A DNA stretch of 64,000 bases, taken from positions 602,561 through 666,560 of the forward strand of contig AP026679.1 in NCBI GenBank assembly GCA_025999155.1. Reading direction: 5' to 3'. The position numbers were made by a program, and so were the translations under genes. Below are positions 7,207-61,212 of the stretch, in pieces. The stretch is from Candidatus Dojkabacteria bacterium (GTDB lineage: Bacteria > Patescibacteriota > Dojkabacteria > JAOAGR01). Every line of letters begins with the position of its first letter. Position 1 is the stretch's first letter. The notes under the pieces are model-generated. The model ran no database searches. It saw nothing but the letters and a program-made list of their open reading frames with translations, and was not told where the DNA came from.

Positions 7207-7328
7207 TATTACACTACGTTAAGTTATGTTATGTAAGACAATTAGCAATATCTTTATTTTAATATTGTCTCATGTTAATTGATTGAGCTATTAATACTTT
7301 CTTTATTGTATTTGTCAATCTGCGCACT

Positions 7329-9110
7329 TTAGTCTAATTCACTTACTCCAATGATTTTATTTCGGTTGAACAAGAAAAGTACCTTGTTTAGATATGGCTT
7401 AGTTTTAGTGATTAGGTCATCGATTAATAATACATCGTCGTCTTTTAAAAAGTTTTCGCTAAGATAGTAAGTCATTAAGATAAACATAGAGGAATTTATG
7501 GAAGTTAGCAAAACACCCACAACTCTAGTAGTGTCAATAAAGTCATTTGTATATTTGAATACTATTAAACCCAGAATTAGGCTAATAAGGCCACTAAGAA
7601 ATTTTTTCGATATGTATGATTGTTCGTAAAAAAAGTTAATACCTTTTTTACGTAGTAAGAAAATCAGAATAGAAACATTAATAGTGGTAGAAATGCTCGA
7701 TGCTAGGGCTATCCCTCCAATAGCTGCAGGACTGTTTCCGTTGGAAAAGTAGCTATTTATATTCGATATTATGAATATCGGATTAACCGAGAGACTCTCA
7801 TCAAAATTGCTAAATAAGTTTACTAAAGCATATGTTAAGCTTATCTCAAAAAATATTATGAAAATACTCACCAATGTAGGTGTAACAGAGTCATTTAATG
7901 CATAAAATGTACGGTTTATAATACCTACTATCGATAAAGAAATAATACTTATTGCCAGGAACAGCAATGTATAAGAAACCATGTTTGTTCCCTGGAAATC
8001 GCCACTTTTTGAAAATAAGCCAAATATCAGCTGTGTCATTGGTGTGCGTAATACTATTACTACTACAGTTATAGGAATTGTCCATAATAACAATATTCTT
8101 ATTGCCCTTGAAAAAACTTTTTGTAAATCATCAAGACGGTTACTTTGAGCGAGTTCAGATATATGCGGGAATATAGATTGAGCTATTGCTAGACCAAATA
8201 CGGATGTTGGAATATCTCGTAAAGAAGTAGCTAATCTTAGTGCATTTAATGCTCCGGTAGTGATGTTTAAAGCAATAAAAGCTTGAAAGATACCAGCTAT
8301 ATATTCAGATGCAAGACCTATACTTCTTGGTATAGTGTTTCGGATGGCATTTATAACGTATGAATTATTAAAAGCAAATGAGAGAACCTGATAATGAATA
8401 TTAGCTTGAAATATTGCCGGTAATTGAATTAGAAGATGTAGAACACTTGCAAATATAACTCCATAAGCCAGAAATTTAACATCAAGATGAAAAATACGTA
8501 TAACAAGCGTTGTAATAATGATCCCTATATTGTAAAAGAGTGGCGCGAAAGCTGTTATCCAAAATAACTTCTTGACTTGTAAAATGCTTGAAAATATGGC
8601 GCTTAAGCACAATATGATTGGTGAAAAAATAAGTATTCTGAGTAAATCAATTAGCATATGATATTCATCTGGTGTAAGTTTGTTATTTATATTAGGTAAG
8701 TTAATGTTTACGACATAGTGTATTGCTTGAGGAGCAAATATATACACCGCTATAGAGATGAATAGCAGACATATCACAAAAATGTTTAAAATGCTTGATA
8801 ATATCTTAGTTTGGATCTCGTAGGGCTCATCTAAATTTATTTTGCTAAATATAGGAATTAAAGCTGCGTTGATACCTCCAATAACTATAACCGAAAAAAT
8901 AAAGTCAGGTATAACATTTGCGGCATGAAAAAGATCTAACTCTCTTGACCTGATACCGTAGACAGCTACAAGAAGTTGAGATTTAAGTAAAGAAGTTAAT
9001 TTAGTTAGCAATATAATTATACCCATTCCGATCGCAACAATACCTAAAGATTCTTGTGCTTTAGATAGTTTAGTTTGCGTCGACTTCAAAATATTTCTTA
9101 CATCATTCAC
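7329..9110 (-). CDS. murJ: lipid II flippase MurJ/MviN-like polytopic membrane protein
   Basis: 593 aa with about 14 hydrophobic helices. N-terminal motif GIRSRELDLFHAANVIPDFIFSVIVIGGINAALIPIFSK resembles the MurJ N-terminus. Confidence 0.55.
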   Translation of the reverse strand: MNDVRNILKSTQTKLSKAQESLGIVAIGMGIIILLTKLTSLLKSQLLVAVYGIRSRELDLFHAANVIPDFIFSVIVIGGINAALIPIFSKINLDEPYEIQTKILSSILNIFVICLLFISIAVYIFAPQAIHYVVNINLPNINNKLTPDEYHMLIDLLRILIFSPIILCLSAIFSSILQVKKLFWITAFAPLFYNIGIIITTLVIRIFHLDVKFLAYGVIFASVLHLLIQLPAIFQANIHYQVLSFAFNNSYVINAIRNTIPRSIGLASEYIAGIFQAFIALNITTGALNALRLATSLRDIPTSVFGLAIAQSIFPHISELAQSNRLDDLQKVFSRAIRILLLWTIPITVVVIVLRTPMTQLIFGLFSKSGDFQGTNMVSYTLLFLAISIISLSIVGIINRTFYALNDSVTPTLVSIFIIFFEISLTYALVNLFSNFDESLSVNPIFIISNINSYFSNGNSPAAIGGIALASSISTTINVSILIFLLRKKGINFFYEQSYISKKFLSGLISLILGLIVFKYTNDFIDTTRVVGVLLTSINSSMFILMTYYLSENFLKDDDVLLIDDLITKTKPYLNKVLFLFNRNKIIGVSELD

Positions 9111-9913: not shown

Positions 9914-12022
9914 ATGTATAATCAAAAGTTTGTTTACGAGTTTGTCTTGGATGGAGTGCCTTTCCGTATTGAATCAGGGGAATTTGGTCTTTTAAGTCAT
10001 GTAGCTTTCTTAATTAGTTATGGTAATACTTCTGTCTATATTACAATCAATGTTGGCAAGCATAGTTCTGAGCTAGATTTTCTTCCATTAACCATAGAAT
10101 ATTCCGAGAAGTTGTACGCTGGCGGAATCATCTCATCTTCTCCCTATATTAAAAGGGAGGGGAAACCAACAGAAAGTGAAATATTGAAGGGGCGTTTGCT
10201 AGATCATGCGATTAGGTCGCTTTTTGATGATCGGTTCAAAATAGAGACTCAGATAATAGTACAAGTTTTTGCCTATGACAAAGTCAATGATCCATTGTAT
10301 GCGGCCCTTGTCGGTTTGAGTTTTGCTTTGATGTATTCGGGATTACCATTTTTAGGTCCTTATGGTGCTACAAAAGTCGGATATATTGATGGACAGATAG
10401 TATTAAACCCAAATTTAGAGCAAATGAATGCATCTCTTCTTGAGATGTTTGTATCGAGTGTAGAAAAAGGCGTTGTTTCTATAGAAGCAGATGCGAATGA
10501 TTTATCTGATAATATAATCAAAAATGCTATTGAGCGGGCCGTGCAACACAATCGATTGTTGATTGAAGAGCAGTACAACTTTATAAACAAGTATGGTCGA
10601 AAAAATTTTGCCTTTGTACAAGATGAACAAAAAGAATCTCTTTTAAATCAATTACATCAAGAAATCCTGCAAGTTTCTCAATCTGATATTGAAGATGCAC
10701 TTTATTTAGAAACGAAGGCTGCTAGAACAAAGGCTATTGAAGATATCAAATTCTCTCTTTTGGTAAAGTATAAAGATCAAATTGAGAATGGAGTATACAG
10801 AGAGGACGATATTAGCCAAACCTTAGAAAAAATATTTAAAAAAACATTTCGTTCAAATTTGTTAAGATTTGGTCGACGTTTTGATAATCGTAAGTTAGAT
10901 GAAGTACGTCCTCTTTCAATGAGAGTCGGTGTATTGCCTGGAGTACATGGATCTGCTTTATTTACAAGGGGCGAAACTCAAAGTTTGTCTATTGTTACTT
11001 TAGGCACGGACCGGGATGAGTTAATGTTTCAAGGTTTAGAGGGAGATTCCTCAAAAAGATATTTTCATCATTATAATATGCCTGGATATGCTAATGGGGA
11101 GATCGATAGAAAATTTGGCATGCCAAACCGTCGCGCCATTGGTCATGGAGCAATCGGAGAGAAAGCTTTAGATCCCGTTTTACCGTCCGAAGATGAATTT
11201 CCGTACACAATAAGAGTAGTATCGGAAATACTTACATCAAATGGATCTACATCTATGGCTGCCACTTGTGCATCAAGTTTAGCATTGATGGATGCAGGTG
11301 TGCCAATTAAAAAAGCCATTGGTGGTGTTGGACTTGGTCTAGTACTGGAAGAGGATACCGGTGAATATAGGATATTAACTGATATTATGGGAATGGAAGA
11401 TTTTTATGGTGATATGGATTTTAAAATTGCTGGGTCAAGAGATGGTATCACTGCTATCCAGTTAGATAATAAAAAGGCAGGAATTCCATTAGAGATAATT
11501 CTTGAGTCTATTGATAGGTCGAAATTGGCAAGATTGTTTATTTTGGATGAAATGGAGAAGTGTCTAGCATCTCCTAGAGCTCATTTGTCTCATAATGCTC
11601 CAAGAGTAAGGATAATAAAGATTAGTCCTGATAAAATAGGGGAATTAATAGGTTCTGGTGGTAAAACTATAAAGTCAATAATAGAGAAAAACAATGTAGA
11701 GATAAGTATTGAGGAAGATGGCCTAGTCAAAATATATTCTAGTAATGAACAAAGTTGTAACAATGCTGTTACTATGATTTATGGCGTTTTACAGGACTTA
11801 GAGCCTGGTATGGAAATGGACGCAAGGATTGTAAGGATAGAAAATTACGGTGCCTTTGTAGAAATTCTAAACACAAAGATCCAGGGGCTGATACATATTT
11901 CGAACCTTGGTTTAAAAAGGACTGAGAGCATACGAGATAACTTCAAAGTGGGTCAGGTCGTTTTGGTGAAATTTTTAGGATGCGATGAAAAAGGTCGTAA
12001 CAAGTTTGCTTTAGCTAAATAA
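9914..12022 (+). CDS. pnp: polyribonucleotide nucleotidyltransferase (PNPase)
   Basis: Two RNase PH domains (RPLSMRVGVLPGVHGSALFTRGETQ) plus C-terminal KH and S1 domains. The ORF track starts at 9887; the likely start is the ATG at 9914. Confidence 0.9.
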   Translation: MYNQKFVYEFVLDGVPFRIESGEFGLLSHVAFLISYGNTSVYITINVGKHSSELDFLPLTIEYSEKLYAGGIISSSPYIKREGKPTESEILKGRLLDHAIRSLFDDRFKIETQIIVQVFAYDKVNDPLYAALVGLSFALMYSGLPFLGPYGATKVGYIDGQIVLNPNLEQMNASLLEMFVSSVEKGVVSIEADANDLSDNIIKNAIERAVQHNRLLIEEQYNFINKYGRKNFAFVQDEQKESLLNQLHQEILQVSQSDIEDALYLETKAARTKAIEDIKFSLLVKYKDQIENGVYREDDISQTLEKIFKKTFRSNLLRFGRRFDNRKLDEVRPLSMRVGVLPGVHGSALFTRGETQSLSIVTLGTDRDELMFQGLEGDSSKRYFHHYNMPGYANGEIDRKFGMPNRRAIGHGAIGEKALDPVLPSEDEFPYTIRVVSEILTSNGSTSMAATCASSLALMDAGVPIKKAIGGVGLGLVLEEDTGEYRILTDIMGMEDFYGDMDFKIAGSRDGITAIQLDNKKAGIPLEIILESIDRSKLARLFILDEMEKCLASPRAHLSHNAPRVRIIKISPDKIGELIGSGGKTIKSIIEKNNVEISIEEDGLVKIYSSNEQSCNNAVTMIYGVLQDLEPGMEMDARIVRIENYGAFVEILNTKIQGLIHISNLGLKRTESIRDNFKVGQVVLVKFLGCDEKGRNKFALAK

Positions 12023-12051
12023 ATGATTATAATTAAGCTAATTGTTAGATT

Positions 12052-12477
12052 ATGGAGACCATAATGCGATTAAATGCATATCTTGCTAAATTTTCGAAGT
12101 TTATATTTGCTATATTTTTGCTGTTTTTATTCATTATTAATTTTATAAGTGTTCCTGCTGTTGCTAAATGTCCGGAAAATGTTGTGCCGAATCCGCTAGA
12201 TCCTAACTGTCAATTACAGCAACCCATCACTCTGGGCATGATTTTGAATCGAATCACTCCATTTATCCCAATTGCGGCAACAATTGCTGCAGTGTTCATG
12301 TTGATTGCAGGGGCGTTCGTGATGTTGACGTCTCAAAATGAGGAGGGACGACGTAAAGCGATACAGTTCTGGATTAATGCCGCCATTGGTCTGGTGCTTT
12401 TATTCTCGATATGGCTCATTTTATTTCTCATCTCGATATTTACTGGTGTGGATTTATTAAGTGCTGTAGGACAATGA
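12052..12477 (+). CDS. pilin-like secreted protein 1 (VirB2/TrbC-like topology: signal peptide, Cys region, C-terminal TM-loop-TM)
   Basis: Likely start at 12064 (MRLNAYLAKFSKFIFAIFLLF signal). C-terminal hairpin IAATIAAVFMLIAGAFVMLT-SQNEEGRRKAIQ-FWINAAIGLVLLFSIWL. Stop overlaps the next start (ATGA at 12474-12477). Confidence 0.45.
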   Translation: METIMRLNAYLAKFSKFIFAIFLLFLFIINFISVPAVAKCPENVVPNPLDPNCQLQQPITLGMILNRITPFIPIAATIAAVFMLIAGAFVMLTSQNEEGRRKAIQFWINAAIGLVLLFSIWLILFLISIFTGVDLLSAVGQ

Positions 12478-13118
12478 GATTATTATTCATCAGAAAGTTC
12501 AAACGGTATTTATCTCTTATATTCGTTTTTATTTTATCTGTTTGTTTTTTCTATTTTATTTCGGTGCATGTTTTTCAATCAAATGTTTTCGTACTGTTTG
12601 CTCCATCGCCAGTCTCCGCAGAGTCACGTTTGGAATGTCATGATCCTGCTTCCGATGTGTATGATTCTGCAGAATGCGTAAGGGTTAGGTTAGGTCTACA
12701 AGAGATTAAGACAGAGTCATTTCTTATACCCAGAAATCCGAATGACATCATTACATTAGTTTTTATTGTTGTGTTGGCGATTGCTTTCATGGTTTCAGTA
12801 TTTAGGGCTATACTAATAAGTATGAAGTTCTCTGCAGCTGGGGATAATGTGGAAAAGAGACAGGAAGCTCTAAAACAACTCGTGGCATCCCTAATTGCGG
12901 TGGCTGTGTCTTTTTCTGCTTTAGGTATAACTACGTTTATTGTAGTAGATTTACTAGGAGGTACGGTTAATAATACATTAGTTGATTGTGATAACTTACC
13001 AGCGAATGCCTCACAGGAATTAAAAGATAAGTGCAATTTATATATAAATAATGTAATTCCTACGCAAGATAGTGATCCTGGAAGGAGGCCTGTGGGTCCC
13101 ACTATGAGGGCAGAATAG
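12474..13118 (+). CDS. pilin-like secreted protein 2 (paralog)
   Basis: Signal-like N-terminus MRLLFIRKFKRYLSLIFVFIL. Hairpin LVFIVVLAIAFMVSVFRAILISM-KFSAAGDNVEKRQEALKQ-LVASLIAVAVSF. Cys-containing C-terminal tail. Confidence 0.45.
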   Translation: MRLLFIRKFKRYLSLIFVFILSVCFFYFISVHVFQSNVFVLFAPSPVSAESRLECHDPASDVYDSAECVRVRLGLQEIKTESFLIPRNPNDIITLVFIVVLAIAFMVSVFRAILISMKFSAAGDNVEKRQEALKQLVASLIAVAVSFSALGITTFIVVDLLGGTVNNTLVDCDNLPANASQELKDKCNLYINNVIPTQDSDPGRRPVGPTMRAE

Positions 13119-13171
13119 TTTTTTGTGATGAGTAGTATGGCTGTATAGGTTGCAAGTATACAAAAGTTGTA

Positions 13172-13801
13172 ATGTATGCTACAATTGTTTTGTACATTTA
13201 TATTATATTTATATTGATAGCTATGAAAATAGAATATACTAAAAATATTTCAGCAAAGATGGCTGTTCTGATATTTTTCCTTGCTGTGTTTGCTGTGGTG
13301 TTTTCGCTTAGCACCGTGGCGTATGCTCAGAATGCCAACAATAGTTGTGGTTCTGATCCATTAAGTGCTGCTTTCGGGTGTAACAGCATTATTAATAGTG
13401 GTAGAGGTATAGATATAGGTAGTATAATCACAATATTCTTTAGAGGTCTTTTAATTGCTTCTGGGGTATGGACTGTATGGCATTTTGCTCTTGCTGGCTT
13501 TAAGATTGGTGGTGCAAAAGAAGACGCTACAAAGAGGCAGGAAGGAATAAAGGCTGCTGTAAATGCCGTTTTAGGTCTTGTTGTCGCGCTGTTATCTTTT
13601 GGGGCGACTTCGCTTATTGCAGGTGCCGTAGGAGGAAGTGCGGCTATTTCTGCTGTAGGAACGCCGTGTACTGCTGTAGATGACCAAACTCAATTATTAT
13701 TTACAGGATTTATGGAGCAGGAGGGAGGATCTGTGTATTGTGTTTTGAGGGATGCACAAGGTAACCAACTCCGTAGGGGCCCTGTTACTTCAAGGACATA
13801 A
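13172..13801 (+). CDS. pilin-like secreted protein 3 (paralog)
   Basis: Alternative start at 13223 (MKIEYTKNISAKMAVLIFFLAVFAVVFSLSTVAYA). Hairpin GVWTVWHFALAGF-KIGGAKEDATKRQEGIKA-AVNAVLGLVVALLSFGA. Confidence 0.45.
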   Translation: MYATIVLYIYIIFILIAMKIEYTKNISAKMAVLIFFLAVFAVVFSLSTVAYAQNANNSCGSDPLSAAFGCNSIINSGRGIDIGSIITIFFRGLLIASGVWTVWHFALAGFKIGGAKEDATKRQEGIKAAVNAVLGLVVALLSFGATSLIAGAVGGSAAISAVGTPCTAVDDQTQLLFTGFMEQEGGSVYCVLRDAQGNQLRRGPVTSRT

Positions 13802-13905: not shown

Positions 13906-13982
13906 GAGCCATTAGCTCAGTTGGTTAGAGCACGGTTCTTATAAAGCCGGGGTCGCTGGTTCAAGCCCAGCATGGCTCACCA
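13906..13982 (+). tRNA. tRNA-Ile with unusual anticodon TAT (UAU), CCA encoded
   Basis: GAGCCAT/ATGGCTC acceptor stem, D-arm GCTCAGTTGGTTAGAGC, anticodon stem CGGTT/AGCCG with loop CTTATAA, T-arm GCTGGTTCAAGCCCAGC. Confidence 0.8.
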
Positions 13983-14039: not shown

Positions 14040-14215
14040 CAACGTAGAAAGTCTAGCATTTAATGGTGAAGGTCATGCACGTCATTTACCAAAAATTCAA
14101 TATCTGATATATCAAAAGATGGGTCGGTGTAAAGGAATACTGGTTCAAGGAGAGTGGAACCGAGGTAACACGCCTCTCTACCATTGCTTGGTAGGGGGGT
14201 TTTTTATTTTATAAA
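14040..14215 (+). promoter_or_regulatory. putative T-box riboswitch leader of thrS (Thr ACC specifier, T-box-like sequence, terminator)
   Basis: GGTGA (GNUGA-like) at 14064-14068; ACC followed by A at 14088-14091; AAGGAGAGTGGAACCGAGG at 14147-14165 resembles the T-box consensus AGGGTGGNACCGCGG; terminator hairpin and T-run at 14176-14210. thrS starts at 14265. Confidence 0.45.
14176..14210 (+). terminator. intrinsic terminator/attenuator hairpin (CTCTACCA-TTGCT-TGGTAGGGGGG) followed by a T-run
   Basis: Stem CTACCA/TGGTAG, then GGGGGG TTTTTTATTTT; lies inside the thrS leader. Confidence 0.55.
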
Positions 14216-14264: not shown

Positions 14265-16013
14265 ATGAACGAGCAAAACCAAATATACAAAATTCGACAT
14301 TCGCTGGCACATGTGCTAGCTCAAGCTGTACAACATTTGTATAGTAATGTGAAATTAGGTATCGGTCCTGTAATTGAAAACGGGTTTTATTACGATTTTA
14401 TATTTGAAGAACCGATCAATGAAGAAGCTCTGCCAAAATTAGAAGATGAAATGCGCAAAATAATTACGAAGAACTACAATTTTGAGAAGAGTATAATGAA
14501 AAAAAGTGAGGCTGTAGAGATGCTGTATAGGGTCAATCAGCCGTTTAAAGCTGAATTAGCAAATGAAATTCAAGATGATGAGGTGAGCTTTTATACGGAC
14601 GGTGATTTTATGGACTTATGCAAGGGGCCTCATGTATCTAATACTTCTGAAATTAATCCGGATGCTTTCAAATTAACCAGTATTGCTGGCGCGTACTGGC
14701 GTGGTGATGAAAAAAGACCTATGATGCAAAGAATTTATGGTGTTGCTTTTGAAACAAAAGAAGAGTTAGATGAATATTTAAGAGTGCAAGAAGAAGCAAA
14801 AAAACGTGATCATCGTAAATTAGGTAAACAACTTGAACTATTCACTTTTTCTGATTTGGTTGGCCCAGGACTGCCTTTATTTACTCCTAGAGGTACGTAT
14901 ATAAGAGATCAGTTAATAGCTTTTTCGGAGCAATTACAGCAAGAAGCTGGTTTTGAGCGAGTTTGCATTCCGCATTTAGCAAAAAGTGATTTGTATAAAG
15001 TATCTGGACATTGGGATAAATATAAAGAAAATTTATTTCATGTACACAGTAATCAGTCCGACGACGAATTTGTCATAAGACCGATGAATTGTCCTCATCA
15101 TGCTCAAATTTATGCCTCTGCTAAAAGGAGCTATCGCGATTTACCTATCCGTTATCTTGAATCTACTACGTGTTATAGAGACGAAAAAACCGGCGAATTG
15201 TTAGGTCTTTCTAGGGTCCGTTCTTTGACACAGGATGATGCGCATATTTTTTGTAGAGATGATCAGGTCAAGGATGAATTGATTATGGTATTAGGGTTGG
15301 TACGCAAGCTATATCAAGCTTTAGGTATGAATTTTCGTGCTCGATTATCTTTTCGGGATCCAAATACGCCAGAAAAATATTTAGGTACTGATGAAGAATG
15401 GCAGCGGACACAAGATTTGTTAAAGGATGCTGTTGAAGAAGCTGGGCTGGAGTATTACATTGCTGAAGGTGAGGCTGCCTTTTATGGGCCAAAAATTGAT
15501 ATAATGGTCAAAGACGCTTTGGGTAGAGAGTGGCAGTGTGCTACTCAACAAGTTGATTATTTTCAGCCACAAAGATTCGGATTGACATATACAGATTCTG
15601 ATGGCAAAGAAAAACCTGTGGTGATGATTCATAAAGCACTCTTAGGATCAGTTGAACGTTTTATGTCTGTTTATATAGAGCACACTGCAGGTAATTTTCC
15701 TTTGTGGTTGTGTTATGAAAAGGCTGTTGTTATACCGGTTTCAAATGAGAAGCATGTTGAATACGCTCATAAGGTTGCCAAACAATTAAATAATATGGGA
15801 TTGCGTTCTTATGCGGATGATGGGAACGAGACTATGGCAAATAAAATACGTAAGGCTCAATTGACTAAGATTCCTTATATGTTAATTGTAGGAGATAAAG
15901 AACAAGACAATGATGCGGTATCTGTAAGATTGCGGAATGGTATAAATTTAGGTCTGATGTCAATAGATGAATTAGCGGAGAGAATGCGAAACGAGATAGC
16001 CAATAAAGTATGA
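14265..16013 (+). CDS. thrS: threonyl-tRNA synthetase (lacks N-terminal TGS domain)
   Basis: 582 aa; second additional domain RHSLAHVLAQAV; class II catalytic core (FRDPNTPEKYLG, HRKLGKQLELF); C-terminal anticodon-binding domain. Confidence 0.9.
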   Translation: MNEQNQIYKIRHSLAHVLAQAVQHLYSNVKLGIGPVIENGFYYDFIFEEPINEEALPKLEDEMRKIITKNYNFEKSIMKKSEAVEMLYRVNQPFKAELANEIQDDEVSFYTDGDFMDLCKGPHVSNTSEINPDAFKLTSIAGAYWRGDEKRPMMQRIYGVAFETKEELDEYLRVQEEAKKRDHRKLGKQLELFTFSDLVGPGLPLFTPRGTYIRDQLIAFSEQLQQEAGFERVCIPHLAKSDLYKVSGHWDKYKENLFHVHSNQSDDEFVIRPMNCPHHAQIYASAKRSYRDLPIRYLESTTCYRDEKTGELLGLSRVRSLTQDDAHIFCRDDQVKDELIMVLGLVRKLYQALGMNFRARLSFRDPNTPEKYLGTDEEWQRTQDLLKDAVEEAGLEYYIAEGEAAFYGPKIDIMVKDALGREWQCATQQVDYFQPQRFGLTYTDSDGKEKPVVMIHKALLGSVERFMSVYIEHTAGNFPLWLCYEKAVVIPVSNEKHVEYAHKVAKQLNNMGLRSYADDGNETMANKIRKAQLTKIPYMLIVGDKEQDNDAVSVRLRNGINLGLMSIDELAERMRNEIANKV

Positions 16014-17053
16014 AATTTTTGCTACAAACTCAGATAGGAGTTGAAAAGATCACGGTACGAGAGTTACTAAGTAAGATCAGGAGTACTTATAGTATAGATT
16101 TTTTGGGATTTGTACCACACAAAAATGGTATTGTGCAGATTGATTGGCGTGATAAGAGCCGTTTTGAGTATCAAAATCTAGGAACGGTCGAAGATGTATT
16201 TTTTGTAGTAAATTATGTAAAAAATATCCCGTATAGCATCCAAGCTAAAGATATTGTCAAGTTTATTGATTCTAGAGGACTAAGAAGCAATATTGACTAT
16301 TTTTTTGATGTGTTGAACCCTTTCTCGAGCGATAAAAAATTTAGATTTATAGTGAGAAAAAAGTCCCCTCACAGTTTCCGACGTATTGACTTACAAGAGG
16401 TAATTAAGACACTTTTTAATAAAAATATTAAAAGAGTTCAAGTTACTGCAGAAGAGGGAGTGAAAGAGATTTGGGTTACGTTGTTAAAAAATCGCTTAAT
16501 AATAGCAATAAGACTTACTACTAAGATACAAAGACAGGGAAAATATAAGACACAAGGCATTCCTGGTGCATTACGTCCTACTGTAGCGTATGCTATGAAT
16601 TTTATAAGCGAAATACGTTCGAATGACGTAGTTTGGGATCCATTTTGTGGGTCTGGTACTATCCCCTGTGAGATGGTAGAACATTTTAAATTTAAAAGAT
16701 TGATATGCTCTGACGTTTCTGAAAATGCTTTATTCATTACGAAATCTAATCTAGAAAATGTAGAAAACTATAAAAGAGTAAAAAGTAAAGTCTCACTACG
16801 TGTAGAAAATTTTTTTGCGTCAAAAAGTTATTCGGACTTAATTATTACGAATTTGCCTTTTGGAATACAACATGGCAGAGATGAGGATTTCGTTCGGCGG
16901 TTTATTGATAAAATACAAAGTATTAAAAATCTTCGGCAAATTACTGTTTTATTTCCAGAATTAATCAATATCTCAGGTTGGCAACGTACAAGTAAATTTC
17001 ATTTACAGGTGAAAGGTAGACATTGCATATTGCAAGTTTTAAGAAAATTATAG
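16010..17053 (+). CDS. THUMP-domain class I SAM-dependent RNA methyltransferase
   Basis: 347 aa; SAM motif VWDPFCGSGTIPCE; NLPFG catalytic-type motif; ATGA overlap with the thrS stop. Confidence 0.55.
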   Translation: MKFLLQTQIGVEKITVRELLSKIRSTYSIDFLGFVPHKNGIVQIDWRDKSRFEYQNLGTVEDVFFVVNYVKNIPYSIQAKDIVKFIDSRGLRSNIDYFFDVLNPFSSDKKFRFIVRKKSPHSFRRIDLQEVIKTLFNKNIKRVQVTAEEGVKEIWVTLLKNRLIIAIRLTTKIQRQGKYKTQGIPGALRPTVAYAMNFISEIRSNDVVWDPFCGSGTIPCEMVEHFKFKRLICSDVSENALFITKSNLENVENYKRVKSKVSLRVENFFASKSYSDLIITNLPFGIQHGRDEDFVRRFIDKIQSIKNLRQITVLFPELINISGWQRTSKFHLQVKGRHCILQVLRKL

Positions 17054-47617: not shown

Positions 47618-47621
47618 AGCT

Positions 47622-53180: not shown

Positions 53181-53861
53181 TTATTCACCACATGGATCAT
53201 TTCTATCGAAAGTAAGGTTAAAAACTATTGTATTTTGACAGATAAAGTTATATTCCTTACGTTCCGTATTTGCAACTCCAAATCCAAGCACCCCAACTAA
53301 GAAAAATACTAAGACAGGATAAGCGAACAAGAAACCAAACGTGGAGACGATTGATGCGACAAGACCTTTTACTGCTGTTTGTCTTTTATCTGTATTGTCT
53401 CCTGCCGTCATTATTAATACAGCAGCCTTTCCAATACTAAAGGCTAATACTAGGCCAACAATAGCGTATAGAATCATAACTATACGTACGATGATTTTTT
53501 GTAGAGTAGATGCGGAAGCACATGAGATGACCACTGGATTAATAGGATTACCTGCACTATCGAGTTGGTAACCGTAAACAACGGAACCGTTTACTCCTAC
53601 AGATACTTCAGGTCTCAGTGTAGGATTACCATAGCCATCTAAAGTTATATAAATGTTTTTTATGACATCGGGGCAGCCAGAGTTGTATATACGTCTAGCT
53701 ATTTCTTCAGCTTGGGGTGAGCTTCGATCTACCGGAGGACCATAGCTGTAGGCATATGCCGTGGAAATTTTACTTACTGTTGGAGTAATACCAAGACAAG
53801 CTAATATATTGAATATTACGAGCAGTAAGTATTTTGAATATTTACTTATATGAATTCTCAT
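53181..53861 (-). CDS. pilin-like secreted protein 4 (paralog of the 12.0-13.8 kb trio)
   Basis: Signal peptide KYLLLVIFNILACLGITPTVSKISTAYA. Hairpin IVRIVMILYAIVGLVLAFSIG-KAAVLIMTAGDNTDKRQTAVKG-LVASIVSTFGFLFAY. The loop is near-identical to protein 2 (SAAGDNVEKRQEALKQLVAS). Confidence 0.45.
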   Translation of the reverse strand: MRIHISKYSKYLLLVIFNILACLGITPTVSKISTAYAYSYGPPVDRSSPQAEEIARRIYNSGCPDVIKNIYITLDGYGNPTLRPEVSVGVNGSVVYGYQLDSAGNPINPVVISCASASTLQKIIVRIVMILYAIVGLVLAFSIGKAAVLIMTAGDNTDKRQTAVKGLVASIVSTFGFLFAYPVLVFFLVGVLGFGVANTERKEYNFICQNTIVFNLTFDRNDPCGE

Positions 53862-54082: not shown

Positions 54083-55075
54083 ATGTGGTGTGCACATAAA
54101 AATCTCCTCTTTGTTTTTTCTTTTGTTTTTATGAGCGTACTTTTTGGTGGGGTTGATTTTTCGCGGGTTTATGCACAGTCATCATTCACCGTTAATCCAT
54201 GCAAACCAACTGGTACTCAATCCAATGATGTAGCCTGTCGCTGTAAAAAAAATCAGTGTAGATTATCCAGTATGAATGCAGATGTTCTATACGTCAATTC
54301 TTCCAATTTGAGCGCAGCTGATTTCGACCCGAATTTGATAGCTGATGGGACTGTCTCAGAAACGACAGCTCTTGTAGTATCTATGCCGGGTTACGTATGT
54401 ATTGACGGGGTAGAAAAGTTAGATGCAAATACTTTTAGACTCGGAGAAGAAGGTAATAATCAAGTTCTTTCTAACTTTACCATATCTAACGTGTATGAGA
54501 CTCTGGAAACAGGTTCTGCTTCTTTACGTGCCGATTTAGATCCTAAAAATTCAGTTTATGTGGATGTCTTTGCTGATGATGTCAATAGATCATCTATACC
54601 TAAAGGTTCATTTTGTAAGCTAGATCCACAGTCGGGTGTTGCATATTGGTATTATCCGGGTTATTTTTCTGTGATTGGATTGAATCCTTCTGGTAATTCT
54701 GAGATATTTGGGCCAGGAGGTTTATGTGAAAATGTACTGTTTTCCTCAAGAGATTTGTTTGGTCAGCAAATTACTGGAACTCAAACTTTTTTTGGTTGTT
54801 TGCCGAATTCGCCAAATGGGTTAGTTGCGTTTATAGTGAGGTTAATTACTGGGTTAGCAGTTATTATAACATTTTTGATTATCCTAATTAATTTGTTGCA
54901 AATTATCTCAAATTCAACAAATCCGGATATCGTAGCTCGGGCTCAAAAGAAGATGACGAGTGCAATTATTACCTTAGTTGTAATCTTGTTTACTATTACT
55001 ATATTGAATATAATCGGCATTCAGATTATTGGTCTGGATGCTGGGGGAATATTCGGTCTATTTACGGGAGGCTAA
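54083..55075 (+). CDS. pilin-like protein 5 with an extended (about 230 aa) Cys-containing N-terminal domain
   Basis: Signal peptide LLFVFSFVFMSVLFGGVDFSRVYA, eight Cys in the N-domain. C-terminal hairpin LVAFIVRLITGLAVIITFLIILINLL-QIISNSTNPDIVARAQKKMTSA-IITLVVILFTITIL. Confidence 0.4.
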   Translation: MWCAHKNLLFVFSFVFMSVLFGGVDFSRVYAQSSFTVNPCKPTGTQSNDVACRCKKNQCRLSSMNADVLYVNSSNLSAADFDPNLIADGTVSETTALVVSMPGYVCIDGVEKLDANTFRLGEEGNNQVLSNFTISNVYETLETGSASLRADLDPKNSVYVDVFADDVNRSSIPKGSFCKLDPQSGVAYWYYPGYFSVIGLNPSGNSEIFGPGGLCENVLFSSRDLFGQQITGTQTFFGCLPNSPNGLVAFIVRLITGLAVIITFLIILINLLQIISNSTNPDIVARAQKKMTSAIITLVVILFTITILNIIGIQIIGLDAGGIFGLFTGG

Positions 55076-55116: not shown

Positions 55117-57558
55117 ATGATTTTGTTTGATATGAGATATTTTGTTAAAATGGCTTCTAATAAAGATAAAAATATATTGAATAAGTTAAAGAGGATTTTT
55201 TGTGCAGCATTGCCAAGTAGAGGAGATTTAGTACTTTTCGGTAAATCTCTAGTGTTTTTGTTTGCAATACTTCTTGGATTGTCATTATTTTCACACCTTG
55301 CATCACCTGTAAAGGCTTTTAACTGGCCATGGGTGGAAGAAAAGGAAGTAGATTCTGCACCTGATGCTTTTTTTCAGTATATGAATTTCCAGGTGGCTGG
55401 TTGTTTCGGGTTGTCACAAGCACGTGACATAAAATATTCTGCTTTTACCGAGAATTTAGGTGTTGGTAGGAAAGTTGCTGAATATTGCCGGCAATTATCG
55501 GGTCCAAATGCTGCTTCTTCAGATCAGAAAAGTGGAATGTATGATACGGGTTTAGGGTGGATACAAATAGATTACGGAGCTACTGGTAGATTGATAAATG
55601 CTACTGCATCGGTATACGGTACGCAAGCTGTTCAGCCTGGTATGACGGTAGAATACTATGCCAAAAGGATTAGGGGGGAAGTGCTTGCTGCTGACAATCC
55701 TATGAGTGGAAGAAGCGTGTTGGCTCCTATTCTAGTACTTAATCAGAATTTGGTTAATCTTGCATACGGTTTGGTGGTTGTTGTGCTGCTTGTTTCATCT
55801 TTGAACATTTTGCTTAGCTCATTGACTGGACAGGAGGAAAAGGTAACTATAGTCCAATTAGTGATGAACGCAGGGGTAACTCTTTTGATTATTACTTTTT
55901 ATTATGAGATAGCAGCTATAATCTATGATCTAACTGTGAATTATGGCAATGCCCTGGTTGCTTCAATGATGGCCCCCTTTATCAACTCAAAAGTCATATT
56001 AGAAAGACTCTCACCTGGAGGAGATTTAGCTGTTATAAATTTACTTAATGTATACCAGTTTGTTGGTGTATCTGATGCTTTGCTCGTAGTACTACAAAGT
56101 ATAATGTCTGGTTTGTATCCTGCAATCGCACAGTCAACATCAGCGATAGGCGCTTCTTTGGGTGGTAGAGGAACTATTGATTCTCCATTCAACATCTTTG
56201 CAGGAATCTTTCAGTTTGCAGGGGGGTTAGGAGCTACAGGAGCTAGTATCTTCATTTCATCTTTTTTAGGTAATGCCGAGATATTCCAAGCTATTATTTC
56301 ATGGACCATTTTTGGCATAAATATAAAAATATTTATTAATCTATTAACTTCTTTTGTTACATTTACTATTTATGTTGGTTTTGGACCTTTGATTGCATTA
56401 GGAGGTATAGATGGTGGGTTTGCAAGGATATCCGAATCATTTAAAAAATTATTTGCATTGGGACTTGTTTTTCCGATGACCTTCTTATTTATTCTCTTAG
56501 GAGCTACGGCACTTAATCTGTCAATCAGAGAAAAGCCTTACGATGCCTCACAAGATTCTGTCAAAGCTATACCGTTGTGTAAGTATTCCCCTAGTGATCC
56601 AGCGAATACTGAGAATTCCATAATAGATAATGCTGGTTTGACTCAGTGGCTGCAAGATAGCATTGGTGGTAATCCAGATGTAGAGGATCCTGCTCGCTTT
56701 CGAAATAAAAATTTTGTTAATCAGAACATATTCGATGTAGTGCCAAAAGGGTATATAGATGGACTGAGAGATTGTAGACCCTCTTTATTTCCTGTTCCTT
56801 GGACCTTTATCCCTGCACCTTTTGGGACAGTTGGACAAAGACAGCTTCAGATACAGACAATAGATTCTTTAGTAAGAACATTCTTGGCTTTAGTGTTTAT
56901 AATACTGGCAGCCAGAGTTCCAAGTATTGTAAATGAAGCTTTGGGGGTTAGGGAAATGAATTCTTTGTCTAATATTACTTCAGCATTTGGCGCAGGAGCC
57001 AAAGGTGCCTTCGGTGCTGGAGGTACTATTTTCGCTACGGGTTTAGGTATGCTGTCTGCTGCGACTTCTGCTGCGACTAGAGTACCTATTCCTTTAGCTG
57101 GTCATTTAAATTCGGCGCGGGGGCTTGGACAAAATAGCTATCTTCAAGCTGTAGGTGGAGTCCTAGGTAGAGTTGTGCAACGTCTAAACCCAAGTTCTGT
57201 CCAGGATATAATAGCCAACTATTCAAAAAGGCAAAGTACTCCTGCTGAGATGGTTAATCAGTTCAATAGTGTTCGAAATTCTTTCTTAGGTGCTACCCCT
57301 GGGGCAGCACCTGCTGGAGTACCTACTCCTGGTACACCTGCCGCCGCTGCGGCAGGTGCTATGGATCCTGCTTATGCATCTCTGATTGCAGCTGTCCAGT
57401 TAGGTACAGCTTTCAAAGACTTGTCACAACAGACTACCGCTTTAGGGACTGTATTTAGTACATTTGGTGGTTCTATCGTTGCATTAACAACACAAATCCA
57501 AGCGTTTGCTAAAGAATTACGAGGTTTCATTGCTACAATCTCTATTGATGACGTATAA
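55117..57558 (+). CDS. large polytopic membrane protein, VirB6/TrbL-like by architecture
   Basis: 813 aa: signal/TM, about 180-aa extracytoplasmic domain, 6 or more TM helices, Gly/Ala/Pro-rich C-terminal region (GAGAKGAFGAGG, PGAAPAGVPTPGTPAAAAAGA). Confidence 0.35.
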   Translation: MILFDMRYFVKMASNKDKNILNKLKRIFCAALPSRGDLVLFGKSLVFLFAILLGLSLFSHLASPVKAFNWPWVEEKEVDSAPDAFFQYMNFQVAGCFGLSQARDIKYSAFTENLGVGRKVAEYCRQLSGPNAASSDQKSGMYDTGLGWIQIDYGATGRLINATASVYGTQAVQPGMTVEYYAKRIRGEVLAADNPMSGRSVLAPILVLNQNLVNLAYGLVVVVLLVSSLNILLSSLTGQEEKVTIVQLVMNAGVTLLIITFYYEIAAIIYDLTVNYGNALVASMMAPFINSKVILERLSPGGDLAVINLLNVYQFVGVSDALLVVLQSIMSGLYPAIAQSTSAIGASLGGRGTIDSPFNIFAGIFQFAGGLGATGASIFISSFLGNAEIFQAIISWTIFGINIKIFINLLTSFVTFTIYVGFGPLIALGGIDGGFARISESFKKLFALGLVFPMTFLFILLGATALNLSIREKPYDASQDSVKAIPLCKYSPSDPANTENSIIDNAGLTQWLQDSIGGNPDVEDPARFRNKNFVNQNIFDVVPKGYIDGLRDCRPSLFPVPWTFIPAPFGTVGQRQLQIQTIDSLVRTFLALVFIILAARVPSIVNEALGVREMNSLSNITSAFGAGAKGAFGAGGTIFATGLGMLSAATSAATRVPIPLAGHLNSARGLGQNSYLQAVGGVLGRVVQRLNPSSVQDIIANYSKRQSTPAEMVNQFNSVRNSFLGATPGAAPAGVPTPGTPAAAAAGAMDPAYASLIAAVQLGTAFKDLSQQTTALGTVFSTFGGSIVALTTQIQAFAKELRGFIATISIDDV

Positions 57559-57566
57559 GATCTTCT

Positions 57567-60227
57567 ATGAATCCTGCTACAGGTGGCGAACAAAATGGTA
57601 ACCCGATAGGACCTGCACAGATTCCTGGCGGAGTATCGGGTTCGAATGTCGGTAGTCAGCCAAAAGGATGGAGTCCCTGGGTTAATTCAGGAGGACTAGC
57701 GGCTGGATCTGGACAAAAGAACTCACCACAGGATAATCCCCCCCAACAGAATACACCACAAAGCAACTTTACATCAGCAGTGTTACAGAAGTTGCAAGAA
57801 CAAAATGAGCTACTTGCAAACTCCGGCTCACCAAATACTGAGCGACCAGAGACTCATCTATTGAACAATTCTCTACAAGGATCTGGCTATCCATTCGGGT
57901 CAGGATGGGGACCCAATGACTCTGCACCAAAAGGATTAGGGGTTGATTCGTCGCAACCAAGAACAAGAGGGCGTCTAAGTCCAGAGGTCCCATCTAATAC
58001 ATTCGGCACTTCCATACGACAAGTTCCATCAGTTACCGGCCTAGGATTGCAACCAGCAGCAAGCTTGCAACTTCCAACTGTTCGTTCGGGAAATCCTCCA
58101 CAAGCTGAAGCAAATACTCAAGGCGGAGATACTAAGGATCCATACAACGTCGCATATCTGCAAAGATTAAATCTTGATGGACTTCGCGGCGGAGGATCGG
58201 CTGAGTCAAGATTTAAACGTTTTGCTTCTGCAGCTAATCTTGGTGAAAAACCACCACCTATACTAAGATCATCACAGATCACCTTAGAACAAGGACAACA
58301 GCCATCTGATACACATACAACTAATTCAAATGTTTCGAGTGTGGGGGCGTTCGGTTCTGAATCAGTTGAAGCAACAGTTAATGCTGGGTCTCTTGCGGAT
58401 TCTATTGATACTAAATCTGAAGGAGATGTTGAGAAGCGTAGAAGTGCAGGATCAGCAAGAGGGAGACAGGTAGCAAGAAGAAAAAGATCAGCAGCAAGCA
58501 GAGTGGGAGTAGCAAATACGGTATATATGCCATCACTTAGTCCACACGGTGGTACAACATTGGGGGGGCAAGGAGTTGATACACCTACTGTAACGAGTTC
58601 AGAAATTCAGGGTACAGGTAGGCAACGTTCTTCTCTCCTTGTCCAGGGTGGAGAAGCAAGAGCTGGGTACGGGCCTATGTCAGACGTTTGGGAAGAGCCC
58701 ATATCTGAGGCTTGGAAACAGCCCGAGTCGGACGCTTGGCAACAGGGAGATCCTAAAACTGTTGCAGGACAGTCTCCTTCGGATGCTCCTTCCCGGGATG
58801 TAGATGTACAGCAACTTAAGACTCAAATCGATGGTGCGCAACAAATTGGACAACGGACACGATCAACAGCCTCCAATCTAGGTCAAGGTCTTGCCTCTAC
58901 AGGAAATAAAGCATCCCGAGCTCTTAAAACCGCAGCGACAGCTAGTAGGACAGCGCTTGTTGCAGGTAGGGCAGCGGTCTCCGCCATCGGAGCTGCACTA
59001 GCAACTCCTCAGGGTTGGTTCATTTTACTAGTGATTATTGTGTTGATACTTATAATAATAATTATTATAGTAGTGATCATACAGAGCTCTCAATCGAATT
59101 CAATTGCTGCAACTAATGAGGTAGCTCGCGAAACTGTACAAGCAACTATCAGTTCTGCTGCTTTTTCTGTTCTTGGCCCCAGTATCGGGCGTAATATACA
59201 GGTCCCCTTGGTTGCTAATTCTGATGGTGTAGAGAAAGACTCGAGTGATGCTGTCAGAAAAATATATGTTAGAGCTTTCCATCAATTAAGCGCTGATTCT
59301 AAAATTCAAGATTATAAGCTGACTTTACGAGTTAGTTTTCCTAACTCCTTAAATTTGTTAACACCGGAAGGGAAAGTTCTCGACAGAAACTCAAGTATCA
59401 TGACATTTAATGTTATAGGTGTGAGTAGTTTTGCTGTGATTGGCACAGATGCTGTGCGATGGGAATGTTCAAATGCTTGTAAAAGTACTGATATCGAAAT
59501 TATATTTACGAGTCCTATCGATCTTGCTAGCAGTGGCGGGCAAATATTACTGACTCTGGTTGCTTCAGATTTAAAGGATCAGCAAGGGGTTGTACTGCCA
59601 ACTACACAGATACGGGAGCTATGCTATGATGTTACTAATGTAGCAGGGTGTACGACAGCTACCCGATATGGTTCGGGTTCTGTAAGTGGAGGGGTATCAG
59701 GCCAACAGAATACCGGTTACACATCTGATGGTGTGTTACAGGTATGTCCTATGGATGTGAAAATCAATACTGGTGGCATAATATGTACTTCTGGAATGAA
59801 AGATAAAAGAGGCAATAAAGATCATAATGCAGTTGATATCGCTAGTGCTGATAATCAAGGGTTTTTGACGCAAGATGTAGTATCCCCAGTGACAGGTATA
59901 ATTGTGGCTATGTCTGATCCAAAATCAGAATTGCGTATAGGAGGAAGATGGTATCAGATTCAGGACGCTCAAAGGCCAGAATATACTTATGTAATTGCTC
60001 ATTTACAGCCTAATACAGAACCACAAGGTAGAGCATTTAATAAGGGAACAAGAATACAAGCAGGACAAATATTAGGAAAACCTTTTTATGCTACATCCGG
60101 ATATGACCGCCAATATTGGTCTGGACCTCATGTACACTTCCAGGTTCGACGAAATGGACAGGCCATCGATCCTGCTCCAGCCATAAGAGAAAAATGTGGT
60201 TGGCAGAATTTCAGATGTCCTAATTAA
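57567..60227 (+). CDS. bitopic cell-wall hydrolase: about 480-aa G/P/Q/S-rich disordered N-terminus, TM, extracytoplasmic domain ending in an M23 (LytM) peptidase
   Basis: TM GWFILLVIIVLILIIIIIIVVII at about aa 490. Canonical M23 order HNAVDIA ... VIAHL ... GQILG ... GPHVHFQV; paired Cys (CSNACKS, CYDV..GCTT, CPMD..ICTSG). Confidence 0.6.
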   Translation: MNPATGGEQNGNPIGPAQIPGGVSGSNVGSQPKGWSPWVNSGGLAAGSGQKNSPQDNPPQQNTPQSNFTSAVLQKLQEQNELLANSGSPNTERPETHLLNNSLQGSGYPFGSGWGPNDSAPKGLGVDSSQPRTRGRLSPEVPSNTFGTSIRQVPSVTGLGLQPAASLQLPTVRSGNPPQAEANTQGGDTKDPYNVAYLQRLNLDGLRGGGSAESRFKRFASAANLGEKPPPILRSSQITLEQGQQPSDTHTTNSNVSSVGAFGSESVEATVNAGSLADSIDTKSEGDVEKRRSAGSARGRQVARRKRSAASRVGVANTVYMPSLSPHGGTTLGGQGVDTPTVTSSEIQGTGRQRSSLLVQGGEARAGYGPMSDVWEEPISEAWKQPESDAWQQGDPKTVAGQSPSDAPSRDVDVQQLKTQIDGAQQIGQRTRSTASNLGQGLASTGNKASRALKTAATASRTALVAGRAAVSAIGAALATPQGWFILLVIIVLILIIIIIIVVIIQSSQSNSIAATNEVARETVQATISSAAFSVLGPSIGRNIQVPLVANSDGVEKDSSDAVRKIYVRAFHQLSADSKIQDYKLTLRVSFPNSLNLLTPEGKVLDRNSSIMTFNVIGVSSFAVIGTDAVRWECSNACKSTDIEIIFTSPIDLASSGGQILLTLVASDLKDQQGVVLPTTQIRELCYDVTNVAGCTTATRYGSGSVSGGVSGQQNTGYTSDGVLQVCPMDVKINTGGIICTSGMKDKRGNKDHNAVDIASADNQGFLTQDVVSPVTGIIVAMSDPKSELRIGGRWYQIQDAQRPEYTYVIAHLQPNTEPQGRAFNKGTRIQAGQILGKPFYATSGYDRQYWSGPHVHFQVRRNGQAIDPAPAIREKCGWQNFRCPN

Positions 60228-60237
60228 AAAATTCACT

Positions 60238-61212
60238 ATGCCAAGTACGCATGTTAAATTAGATAAAAAAATAATACTAGGTTTAATTGCAGTATTTATA
60301 CTATTTTTAGTGCTTTTACTACAGTCGATTTTTGTAAGGCCGTCATCAGATTCTAAACCTAAGTTTGATACCATTGAATTGCAATCTTTCTCTAATTACA
60401 AGTATGGCGATTACTTTACCGTAAATAGCGACATTGAATTCAAAACTACCAGCAATACTCTTGTATATAAAGTATCTGGTATTAATTCTGGGATAGAATC
60501 TGTCAAAAATGCAGCTTTGAAGTTAGGTCTTAGCAAGGAAATTCCTAACGTAAATACAAAAATCACAAAATGGGTAAAAGACGATGATAATGTACGTGCT
60601 CTGAATTCGGTCACTTTAGACAATATAAAAGGGACAGTTAATGTCTTTTATGAAAATGGTATCAATGAGAAGCCACTAGAGAGTGAAGATTATCTTAATT
60701 ATTTGAAGAGTTTTTTTGGTTTTCCGGATATGTATGAGATATATTTGATTAGTAAGGAAACTCAGCAAGATAGTGAGTTTTTAAATTATGGGGTCAAATG
60801 GCAGGAAAAAGATATCTATTTTGATCAGGCAGATAATATTTTTCTCAGCGTAACTATTGTCAATAAAAAAATCATCAGTGTATTTTTTCACTTGTTACCT
60901 ACCGAAATTACCGACTTTAAAAAGTTGAAGCCGATTGATAGGGTGACAAAAGATAATATTGCTTCTTATTATTATCAATTAAGTCTGAAACCGGAGGAAA
61001 TTCATAGCGCTTCAGAATATGGTAGCGAAACAATTGTTGTACCACCTGTGAAAGTTGGTTTAAGAGACCAAAAAGACGCATATATTTTATTTAACGATCC
61101 TACTTTGTCGTGGTTGCTTATACCTGTAATCGATTTTAACGGAGTATTTTTGGATGCAAATAACCAAAAGGGTAGCGCGAGTCTTTTGATAGTTAATCAA
61201 AATAATCGATAG
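60238..61212 (+). CDS. N-terminally membrane-anchored extracytoplasmic protein (VirB8/TcpC-like placement, unverified)
   Basis: TM IILGLIAVFILFLVLLLQSIF, then a 290-aa soluble domain. Directly follows the M23 hydrolase gene; ORF track start 60196 overlaps it, so the ATG at 60238 is more likely. Confidence 0.3.
   Translation: MPSTHVKLDKKIILGLIAVFILFLVLLLQSIFVRPSSDSKPKFDTIELQSFSNYKYGDYFTVNSDIEFKTTSNTLVYKVSGINSGIESVKNAALKLGLSKEIPNVNTKITKWVKDDDNVRALNSVTLDNIKGTVNVFYENGINEKPLESEDYLNYLKSFFGFPDMYEIYLISKETQQDSEFLNYGVKWQEKDIYFDQADNIFLSVTIVNKKIISVFFHLLPTEITDFKKLKPIDRVTKDNIASYYYQLSLKPEEIHSASEYGSETIVVPPVKVGLRDQKDAYILFNDPTLSWLLIPVIDFNGVFLDANNQKGSASLLIVNQNNR

Follow-up and report, generated by a model that had tools for sequence, protein, structure and literature searches.

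Five pilin-like genes of the T4SS_pilin family at two loci in a Candidatus Dojkabacteria genome

The window analyzed here is a 64,000-nt stretch of the metagenome-assembled genome of a Candidatus Dojkabacteria bacterium, an ultra-small patescibacterium (GenBank assembly GCA_025999155.1, contig AP026679.1, positions 602,561 to 666,560 of the forward strand). It holds five genes, designated P1 to P5, whose products combine a signal peptide with a hydrophobic two-helix hairpin like that of the pilins of type IV secretion systems (T4SSs). P1, P2, and P3 form a tandem trio that starts 41 nt 3' of pnp, and P4 and P5 belong to a second module between folD and mutS. In the following list, the hyphen in a signal peptide marks the predicted cleavage site.

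12064..12477, plus strand: P1, pilin-like protein of 137 aa (141 aa if the alternative ATG at 12052 is used); signal peptide AVA-K, external loop CPENVVPNPLDPNC, helix, loop TSQNEEGRRKAIQ, helix.
12474..13118, plus strand: P2, pilin-like protein of 214 aa; signal peptide VSA-E, loop AAGDNVEKRQEALKQ, a Cys pair in the external N-tail and a second one in the C-tail (DC...LP.NAS.ELKDKC).
13223..13801, plus strand: P3, pilin-like protein of 192 aa, in a frame open from 13172; signal peptide AYA-Q, loop KIGGAKEDATKRQEGIK, a Cys pair in the N-tail and another in the C-tail.
53181..53861, minus strand: P4, pilin-domain protein of 226 aa, its gene transcribed divergently to P5; signal peptide AYA-Y, 84-aa external N-domain, hairpin with loop TAGDNTDKRQTAV, Cys-paired C-tail.
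54083..55075, plus strand: P5, pilin-domain protein of 330 aa; signal peptide VYA-Q, 214-aa external N-domain with 8 Cys, hairpin at the C-terminus.

P1 and P2 overlap by ATGA at 12474-12477 (P2 ATG at 12474-12476, P1 TGA at 12475-12477), and this 4-nt overlap is kept in relatives. P1 probably starts at 12064, where a GGAG lies at 12055-12058 and from whose Met a 137-aa orthologue has been called; position 12049 is merely the stop-to-stop start of its frame and not a gene start. Comparison with orthologues favors 13223 over 13172 as the probable start of P3. An earlier reading of this DNA from its letters alone (the sequence-only reading) had described three adjacent genes with translational coupling of the first two, each encoding a signal peptide, a Cys-containing region, and a two-helix hairpin, and the open reading frames (ORFs), cleavage sites, Cys counts, and hydropathy all agree with that description. 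The loops that it had quoted were all located (SQNEEGRRKAIQ in P1, SAAGDNVEKRQEALKQ in P2, GGAKEDATKRQEGIKA in P3, and TAGDNTDKRQTAVKG in P4). LVAS follows directly after the loop in P2 and P4, and the common motif is AGDN.[DE]KRQ.A[LV]K.LVAS.

The cleavage sites are of the AXA type in all five proteins and lie at the end of the N-terminal hydrophobic segment. Hydropathy plots show two strongly hydrophobic helices around a loop with 2-5 K/R in each protein. The Cys residues of the N-tail and C-tail number 2/0, 2/2, 2/2, 2/2, and 8/0 for P1 to P5, an even count in each external segment, and the loops are free of Cys. These signals fit a topology with the N-terminus outside, the loop inside, the C-terminus outside, and predicted external disulfides. 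An AlphaFold2 model of P1 (12 sequences; mean predicted local distance difference test [pLDDT] 74.6) contains a hairpin of helices 71-92 and 97-131 at pLDDT 83-87. The sequence-only reading had named a fold other than a helical hairpin as evidence that would count against a pilin, and since the P1 model is a helical hairpin, that objection does not arise. Fold searches were uninformative and non-specific. Among the paralogues, the hairpins are 14-31% identical (14-25% within the trio).

The T4SS_pilin family (PF18895) was the top Pfam match of all five proteins. P1 (E = 3e-8, 34.1 bits) and P2 (E = 6.5e-7, 29.8 bits) score above the gathering score of 26.6, and the matches of P3 (E = 0.027, 15.0 bits), P4 (E = 1.4e-4, 22.3 bits), and P5 (E = 4.3e-4, 20.7 bits) cover the hairpin under the cut-off. 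Orthologues of P1, P2, and P3 carry PF18895 in precomputed annotation, and P3 aligns with a large conserved subfamily, with which a scan of a genome collection found 4 loci. Aligned, sub-threshold matches to NF045849, the "pilin-like conjugal transfer protein" of a Mycoplasma integrative and conjugative element (ICE), were obtained for all five (E from 3e-6 to 0.9, 9-27 bits against a 40-bit cut-off; P3, E = 1.2e-5). Taken with the signal peptide, two helices, and charged loop, and with the tandem divergent arrangement in a patescibacterial genome, these matches support assignment of P1 to P5 to the patescibacterial T4SS pilin family PF18895.

A hidden Markov model (HMM) of 32 family members, the window's five included, was run on the 495 six-frame ORFs of at least 40 aa. 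The five were recovered at E <= 5.5e-19, and the best of the remaining ORFs reached E = 0.055; because the five are in the model's own training set, the scan shows only that there is no sixth copy among these ORFs. A profile of the five hairpins matched 10,203 representatives of 50%-identity clusters at E <= 1e-3 among 1.84 billion. Word-indexed homologue searches returned only 3 matches (P2) and 4 matches (hairpin profile), because E-values of so short a domain are scaled there to 5.8 billion sequences.

Pilin arrays of this kind are known. A search of 3,035 Patescibacteria genomes with PF04956 and PF18895 found VirB2-like pilins in 1,948 VirB4-positive assemblies, in 1,135 of them near virB4, and 441 arrays of 2-11 pilin genes with a mean identity of 25%; such arrays, it was suggested, may help the bacteria adapt to different hosts (Quinonero-Coronel et al. 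2025, PMC12102498). The same work treats Dojkabacteria (WS6) as a class of Patescibacteria, and its Table S1 contains at least two VirB4-positive Dojkabacteria genomes. In Southlakia epibionticum, a predicted pilin series within the T4SS cluster is itself essential (Wang et al. 2023, PMC10633639), and six structurally conserved, sequence-divergent VirB2-like pilins have been described (2025 review, PMC12857230). Since tandem divergent arrays are already published for Patescibacteria, the five genes are a further example of that kind and not a new system. The sequence-only reading had taken the family to be lineage-specific; with 10,203 cluster representatives, a curated Pfam entry, and the published arrays, it is instead large and widespread.

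The relation to classical VirB2/TrbC pilins was examined by profile-profile alignment with five bona fide VirB2/TrbC genes of Ti, rhizobial, and Sphingobium plasmids as the reference. The family aligned with these by hhalign at a probability of 57% and a score of 31.9, against 9.6 for the reversed profile and at most 16.3 in 30 column shuffles. The alignment is collinear through leader/signal peptide, helix 1, loop, and helix 2, and the VirB2 loop is shorter by about 7 residues. The family also includes long proteins in which 5-17 hairpins are fused. Two of these match both families, P0037 (PF18895, E = 6e-92; PF04956, E = 1e-23) and P0038 (PF18895, E = 3e-60; PF04956, E = 1.9e-40), and the window-hairpin HMM and the VirB2 HMM match the same hairpin units in the fused proteins. 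These results support, short of proof, remote homology of the P1-P5 family with VirB2/TrbC. The core of the sequence-only reading, that these are paralogous pilins of the VirB2-like conjugative type, is supported by PF18895, the sub-threshold NF045849 matches, the hhalign score against its controls, the bridging proteins, and the P1 hairpin model. The fused proteins lie outside the window and are the top hairpin-profile matches (P0037-P0048), single polypeptides of 550-1,775 aa with 5-17 tandem pilin hairpins; a shorter relative of 312 aa with three hairpins comes from a Ca. Curtissbacteria metagenome-assembled genome. Such "poly-pilins" bear on whether members of the family form filaments or rings.

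The trio is embedded among pnp, a tRNA gene, and thrS, with the following features between P3 and thrS.

13906..13982, plus strand: tRNA-Ile (anticodon TAT), just downstream of P3.
14172-14200: strong terminator-like hairpin downstream of tRNA-Ile(TAT), with thrS after it.

The order pnp, P1, P2, P3, thrS, including the 4-nt overlap, is kept in close relatives (loci L001, L003, and L019). It also occurs in three distant genomes (L014, L015, and L017) whose PNPase is 58-65% and whose ThrRS is 67% identical to those of the window; one Dojkabacterium (L016) has retained only the third pilin type. Best matches between loci always pair genes of one type, the first gene with the first, the second with the second, and the third with the third. 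Each type also has its own external motifs, x-C-P-x-N-V-V-P-N-P-L-D-P-x-C immediately after the cleavage site in P1, D-C..LP.NAS.ELKD.C in the C-tail of P2, and AFGC in the N-tail with P-C...C in the C-tail of P3. Given these one-to-one positional orthologues in distant genomes, P1, P2, and P3 are, on comparative grounds, ancient, non-redundant, and co-inherited types rather than recent variants, which argues for joint use and against interchangeable variants or recombination cassettes. At the DNA level, no similarity above chance was found between the paralogues or to copies elsewhere in the window, and a cassette or gene-conversion mechanism was rejected, since no DNA repeats link the paralogues. 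The sequence-only reading had suggested "variant pilus subunits." The multiple divergent copies stand; their being interchangeable variants does not, given the positional orthologues and the lack of DNA similarity.

Three close lineages were compared at this locus, the window with L003, L001, and L019. Proteins flanking the trio are 88-99.5% identical among them (ThrRS is 99.5% identical to that of L001, with about 100% nucleotide identity over 14500-16300), whereas identity is only 52-75% for P1, P2, and P3. At the nucleotide level, a sharp island of divergence spans about 11950 to 13750, where identity drops to 53-76%. Identity recovers from about 13900, and tRNA-Ile(TAT) and the terminator-like hairpin, which are genomic context and no part of the protein system, mark the right edge of the island. 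Against L001, the trio has 0.9-1.9 synonymous (dS) and 0.24-0.43 nonsynonymous (dN) substitutions per site with a dN/dS of 0.22-0.27, compared with a dS of 0.02-0.7, a dN of 0.002-0.05, and a dN/dS of 0.08-0.16 for flanking genes. By these measures, the trio locus consists of deeply diverged alleles in a recombining background, under purifying selection. The signal peptides, helix 1, and the loop vary most, and conservation is highest in the Cys-bounded N-tail, helix 2, and the C-terminus of P1. A model in which the exposed tails vary most was rejected, because the variation peaks in signal peptides and helix 1, which is not a simple exposed-epitope pattern.

In the second module, P4 on the minus strand is followed by P5 and three further genes on the plus strand.

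55117..57558, plus strand: M6, polytopic membrane protein of 813 aa with about 7 hydrophobic segments and a long Ala/Gly-rich helical C-terminus.
57567..60227, plus strand: H7, protein of 886 aa with a C-terminal M23 peptidase (Peptidase_M23, E = 9e-9).
60238..61212, plus strand: U8, single-pass membrane protein of 324 aa with an N-terminal transmembrane helix and an external domain; last gene of the module.

H7 begins with about 480 aa of low-complexity sequence, after which come a single transmembrane helix (486-504), an external domain, and the M23 peptidase. The GTG frame of U8 opens at 60196, and the gene is called as 324 aa in an identical contig. The order P5-M6-H7-U8 is kept at three loci, L007, L005, and L006, where M6 is 81%, 44%, and 31% identical, respectively; P4 has orthologues in L007 and L005 and P5 in all three, and M6 is always downstream of P5. 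The 29 homologues of M6 are all unannotated, and M6 matches a protein of the metagenome-assembled genome Candidatus Dojkabacteria bacterium KatS3mg084 at 100% identity. Its AlphaFold2 model (21 sequences) reached a pLDDT of 45.6, too low for a fold search. U8 gave no family or PDB match, the P5 N-domain gave no Pfam or PDB match, and searches with H7, U8, and the P4 and P5 N-domains found nothing beyond Peptidase_M23. By position and architecture, M6 is a candidate VirB6-like partner, and H7 is a putative cell-wall hydrolase of the module. The gene content thus resembles the minimal T4SS membrane set of monoderms (a VirB6-like protein, a cell-wall hydrolase, and a VirB8-like protein), a likeness of composition that the sequence and profile tests do not support.

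The N-terminal half of H7 (57510-58900), which is probably disordered, cannot be aligned with that of a strain whose neighboring genes are 91-98% identical (33-48% nucleotide identity), and its local GC content reaches 42-44%, compared with about 35% elsewhere. Directly after P5-M6-H7-U8 in L006, the most distant relative, comes a gene for signal peptidase I (Peptidase_S26; 6876-7529). The sole S26 gene of the window lies away from the module, at 31477-32142. In RP4, the S26-family peptidase TraF matures the TrbC pilin.

Elsewhere in the window, an FtsE-like ABC ATPase, an FtsX-like permease, and a 455-aa M23 peptidase protein are encoded in a row at 46940-49926, which looks like a cell-wall hydrolase control unit of the FtsEX-EnvC type. 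The 480-aa ORF before the FtsE-like gene (45433-46875) had no family match, and its orthologue carries a weak Baseplate_J annotation. ClpB is encoded in two frames (1765-2379 and 2399-4090) and is a single protein of 883-884 aa in relatives, and a minus-strand gene resembling those of class II aminoacyl-tRNA synthetases is split into 38-667 and 591-1190. Both splits are probably assembly frameshift errors or pseudogenes.

The preferred reading, to which a probability of about 0.6 is given, is that P1 to P5 are Sec-exported hairpins of the pilin family that a VirB4-type, T4SS-like machine assembles into an extracellular structure for host contact. Each pilin would be exported by Sec, and signal peptidase I would cut the leader at the AXA site, leaving a membrane hairpin with disulfide-bonded N- and C-tails outside and the K/R-rich loop in the cytoplasm. 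If the analogy with VirB2 holds, a VirB4-driven machine encoded outside the window would draw on this pool of membrane hairpins and polymerize them into a filament or tube that contacts the host cell, with the basic loop toward the lumen and the tails on the surface. P1 to P3 would be made from one compact, partly translationally coupled unit beside pnp, and P4 and P5, with M6, H7, and U8, could plausibly form an envelope-spanning base. As three ancient, conserved types in one such unit, P1 to P3 probably act together, by co-assembly or in major and minor roles, and not as alternatives.

The probability is no higher because the window gives evidence of neither the ATPase nor a filament, and several results weigh against the reading. 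No VirB4, VirD4, TrsD, or VirB3 was recognizable in the window (all ORFs >= 450 aa scanned), where the trio has only about 10 genes to its left and a VirB4 further upstream would fall outside. None was found within 10 kb of either locus in relatives, and a phmmer search with Ti VirB4 as the query gave no match in the window or the relatives' loci. A virB4 within about 20 genes, typical of PF18895 though not obligatory, is thus missing from the window loci and from the relatives' 10-kb flanks, as are the adjacency to virB3/virB4 and the mating-pair-formation (MPF) operon typical of PF04956. None of P1 to P5 matched PF04956 directly at E <= 1, three of the five (P3, P4, and P5) fall under the PF18895 cut-off, and a profile of the 32 family members against PDB sequences retrieved no solved pilin. 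M6 was rejected as a recognizable VirB6: M6 and 20 homologues had no Pfam or NCBIfam match, the PDB profile search returned coiled-coil noise, and hhalign with Ti VirB6 gave a probability of 0.6%, with no detectable relation. No T4SS pilus has been observed in any Patescibacterium, for which only a "potential to elaborate conjugative pili" is stated (PMC12857230).

The absence of VirB4 near either locus in any genome examined also supports a different account, in which the hairpins stay in the membrane as parts of an envelope complex (a ring, pore, or scaffold), work with P5-M6-H7-U8 independently of VirB4, and form no pilus. Membrane hairpins that assemble into rings, for example ATP synthase subunit c, are just as near in fold, fusion of hairpins into one chain, here 5-17 of them, is also known for ring-forming proteolipids, and the external Cys-bounded motifs are the best conserved parts, as would be expected of fixed protein contacts. 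Fused hairpins, however, also fit a VirB2-type filament topologically, because both termini are outside. The continuity with TrbC/VirB2 and the position of family pilin genes, beside virB4 in 1,135 of the 1,948 assemblies and inside the essential Southlakia T4SS cluster, likewise speak against a VirB4-independent complex, which is regarded as unlikely, though it is the chief rival.

Antigenic or host-range variation, with one copy expressed at a time or with exchange of segments as in Anaplasma virB2 and Neisseria pilE/pilS, would account for the low identity of the paralogue hairpins and for the excess divergence of the trio over its neighbors among close strains, and the suggested role of the published arrays in adaptation to hosts (PMC12102498) points the same way. 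It is nevertheless judged very unlikely, as the copies share no DNA similarity above chance with each other or with the rest of the window, each has its own orthologue in distant genomes with order and translational coupling kept, the dN/dS indicates purifying selection, and the signal peptides and helix 1 are the most variable parts, with several external motifs among the most conserved. That the five are unrelated small membrane proteins alike only in hydrophobic composition, as the commonness of two-helix hairpins, the non-specific fold searches, and the three Pfam matches under the cut-off might suggest, is effectively refuted by Pfam E-values down to 3e-8 with one family as the top match in all five, by the loop motif and register common to the proteins, by the far lower scores of reversed and shuffled controls, and by the failure of any other membrane protein in the window to score with the family HMM.

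A T4SS-like system with a pilin array is among the few machines shown to be essential for the epibiotic life of Patescibacteria. To the published arrays, the window adds an example in which the paralogues are ancient and separately conserved, which argues for co-assembly over interchangeable variants, in which the pilin loci can lie far from any VirB4, and in which they are hot spots of divergence between otherwise near-identical strains. These points could guide the choice of subunits for modelling or tagging in tractable relatives; the current picture of the family is unchanged. A bolder proposal, that the pilin-like genes of Dojkabacteria have split from the T4SS ATPase locus into a pnp-linked heteromeric trio and a five-gene module forming an undescribed T4SS-derived host-contact apparatus, with allelic divergence reflecting host specificity, is speculative and distinctly improbable.

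The nearest known systems are the VirB2-like arrays of Patescibacteria, such as the essential pilin series of Ca. Southlakia epibionticum ML1, which lies in its T4SS cluster SEML1_0006-0019, and the array of TM7x, which is Sec-secreted. They share with the window genes the Pfam family and phylum, the signal peptide followed by a two-helix hairpin, a chromosomal position without relaxase context, and tandem divergent paralogues (14-31% identity here, against the published mean of 25%). In contrast to these arrays, the trio is flanked by pnp and thrS, has no visible VirB4, and consists of three fixed orthologous types in a kept order, P4 and P5, in a conserved module of their own, have external N-domains of 84 aa and 214 aa, and the host belongs to Dojkabacteria, a class not discussed in the text of PMC12102498. 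With VirB2/TrbC/TraA (PF04956), the window proteins share the long leader with an Ala-X-Ala-type site, the two hydrophobic helices with a short basic loop, the collinear profile-profile match (probability of 57%), and the bridging sequences that match both families. They differ from VirB2/TrbC/TraA in the loop, about 7 residues longer, in the lack of a direct PF04956 match and of adjacent virB3/virB4, in tails of up to 214 aa with predicted disulfides, in the monoderm host, and in showing no sign of cyclization or acetylation. The pilin-like protein of the Mycoplasma ICE (Mbov_0395/MMCAP2_0565; NF045849) is likewise a small two-helix protein, from an MPF-FATA conjugation system of a monoderm, but the window proteins score under its cut-off and have no ICE context. 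The virB2 arrays of Bartonella and Anaplasma phagocytophilum also contain several divergent tandem copies in a host-dependent bacterium; those are classical PF04956 genes that accompany a complete VirB system, with antigenic variation as their presumed role, whereas the genes described here are old, individually conserved types.

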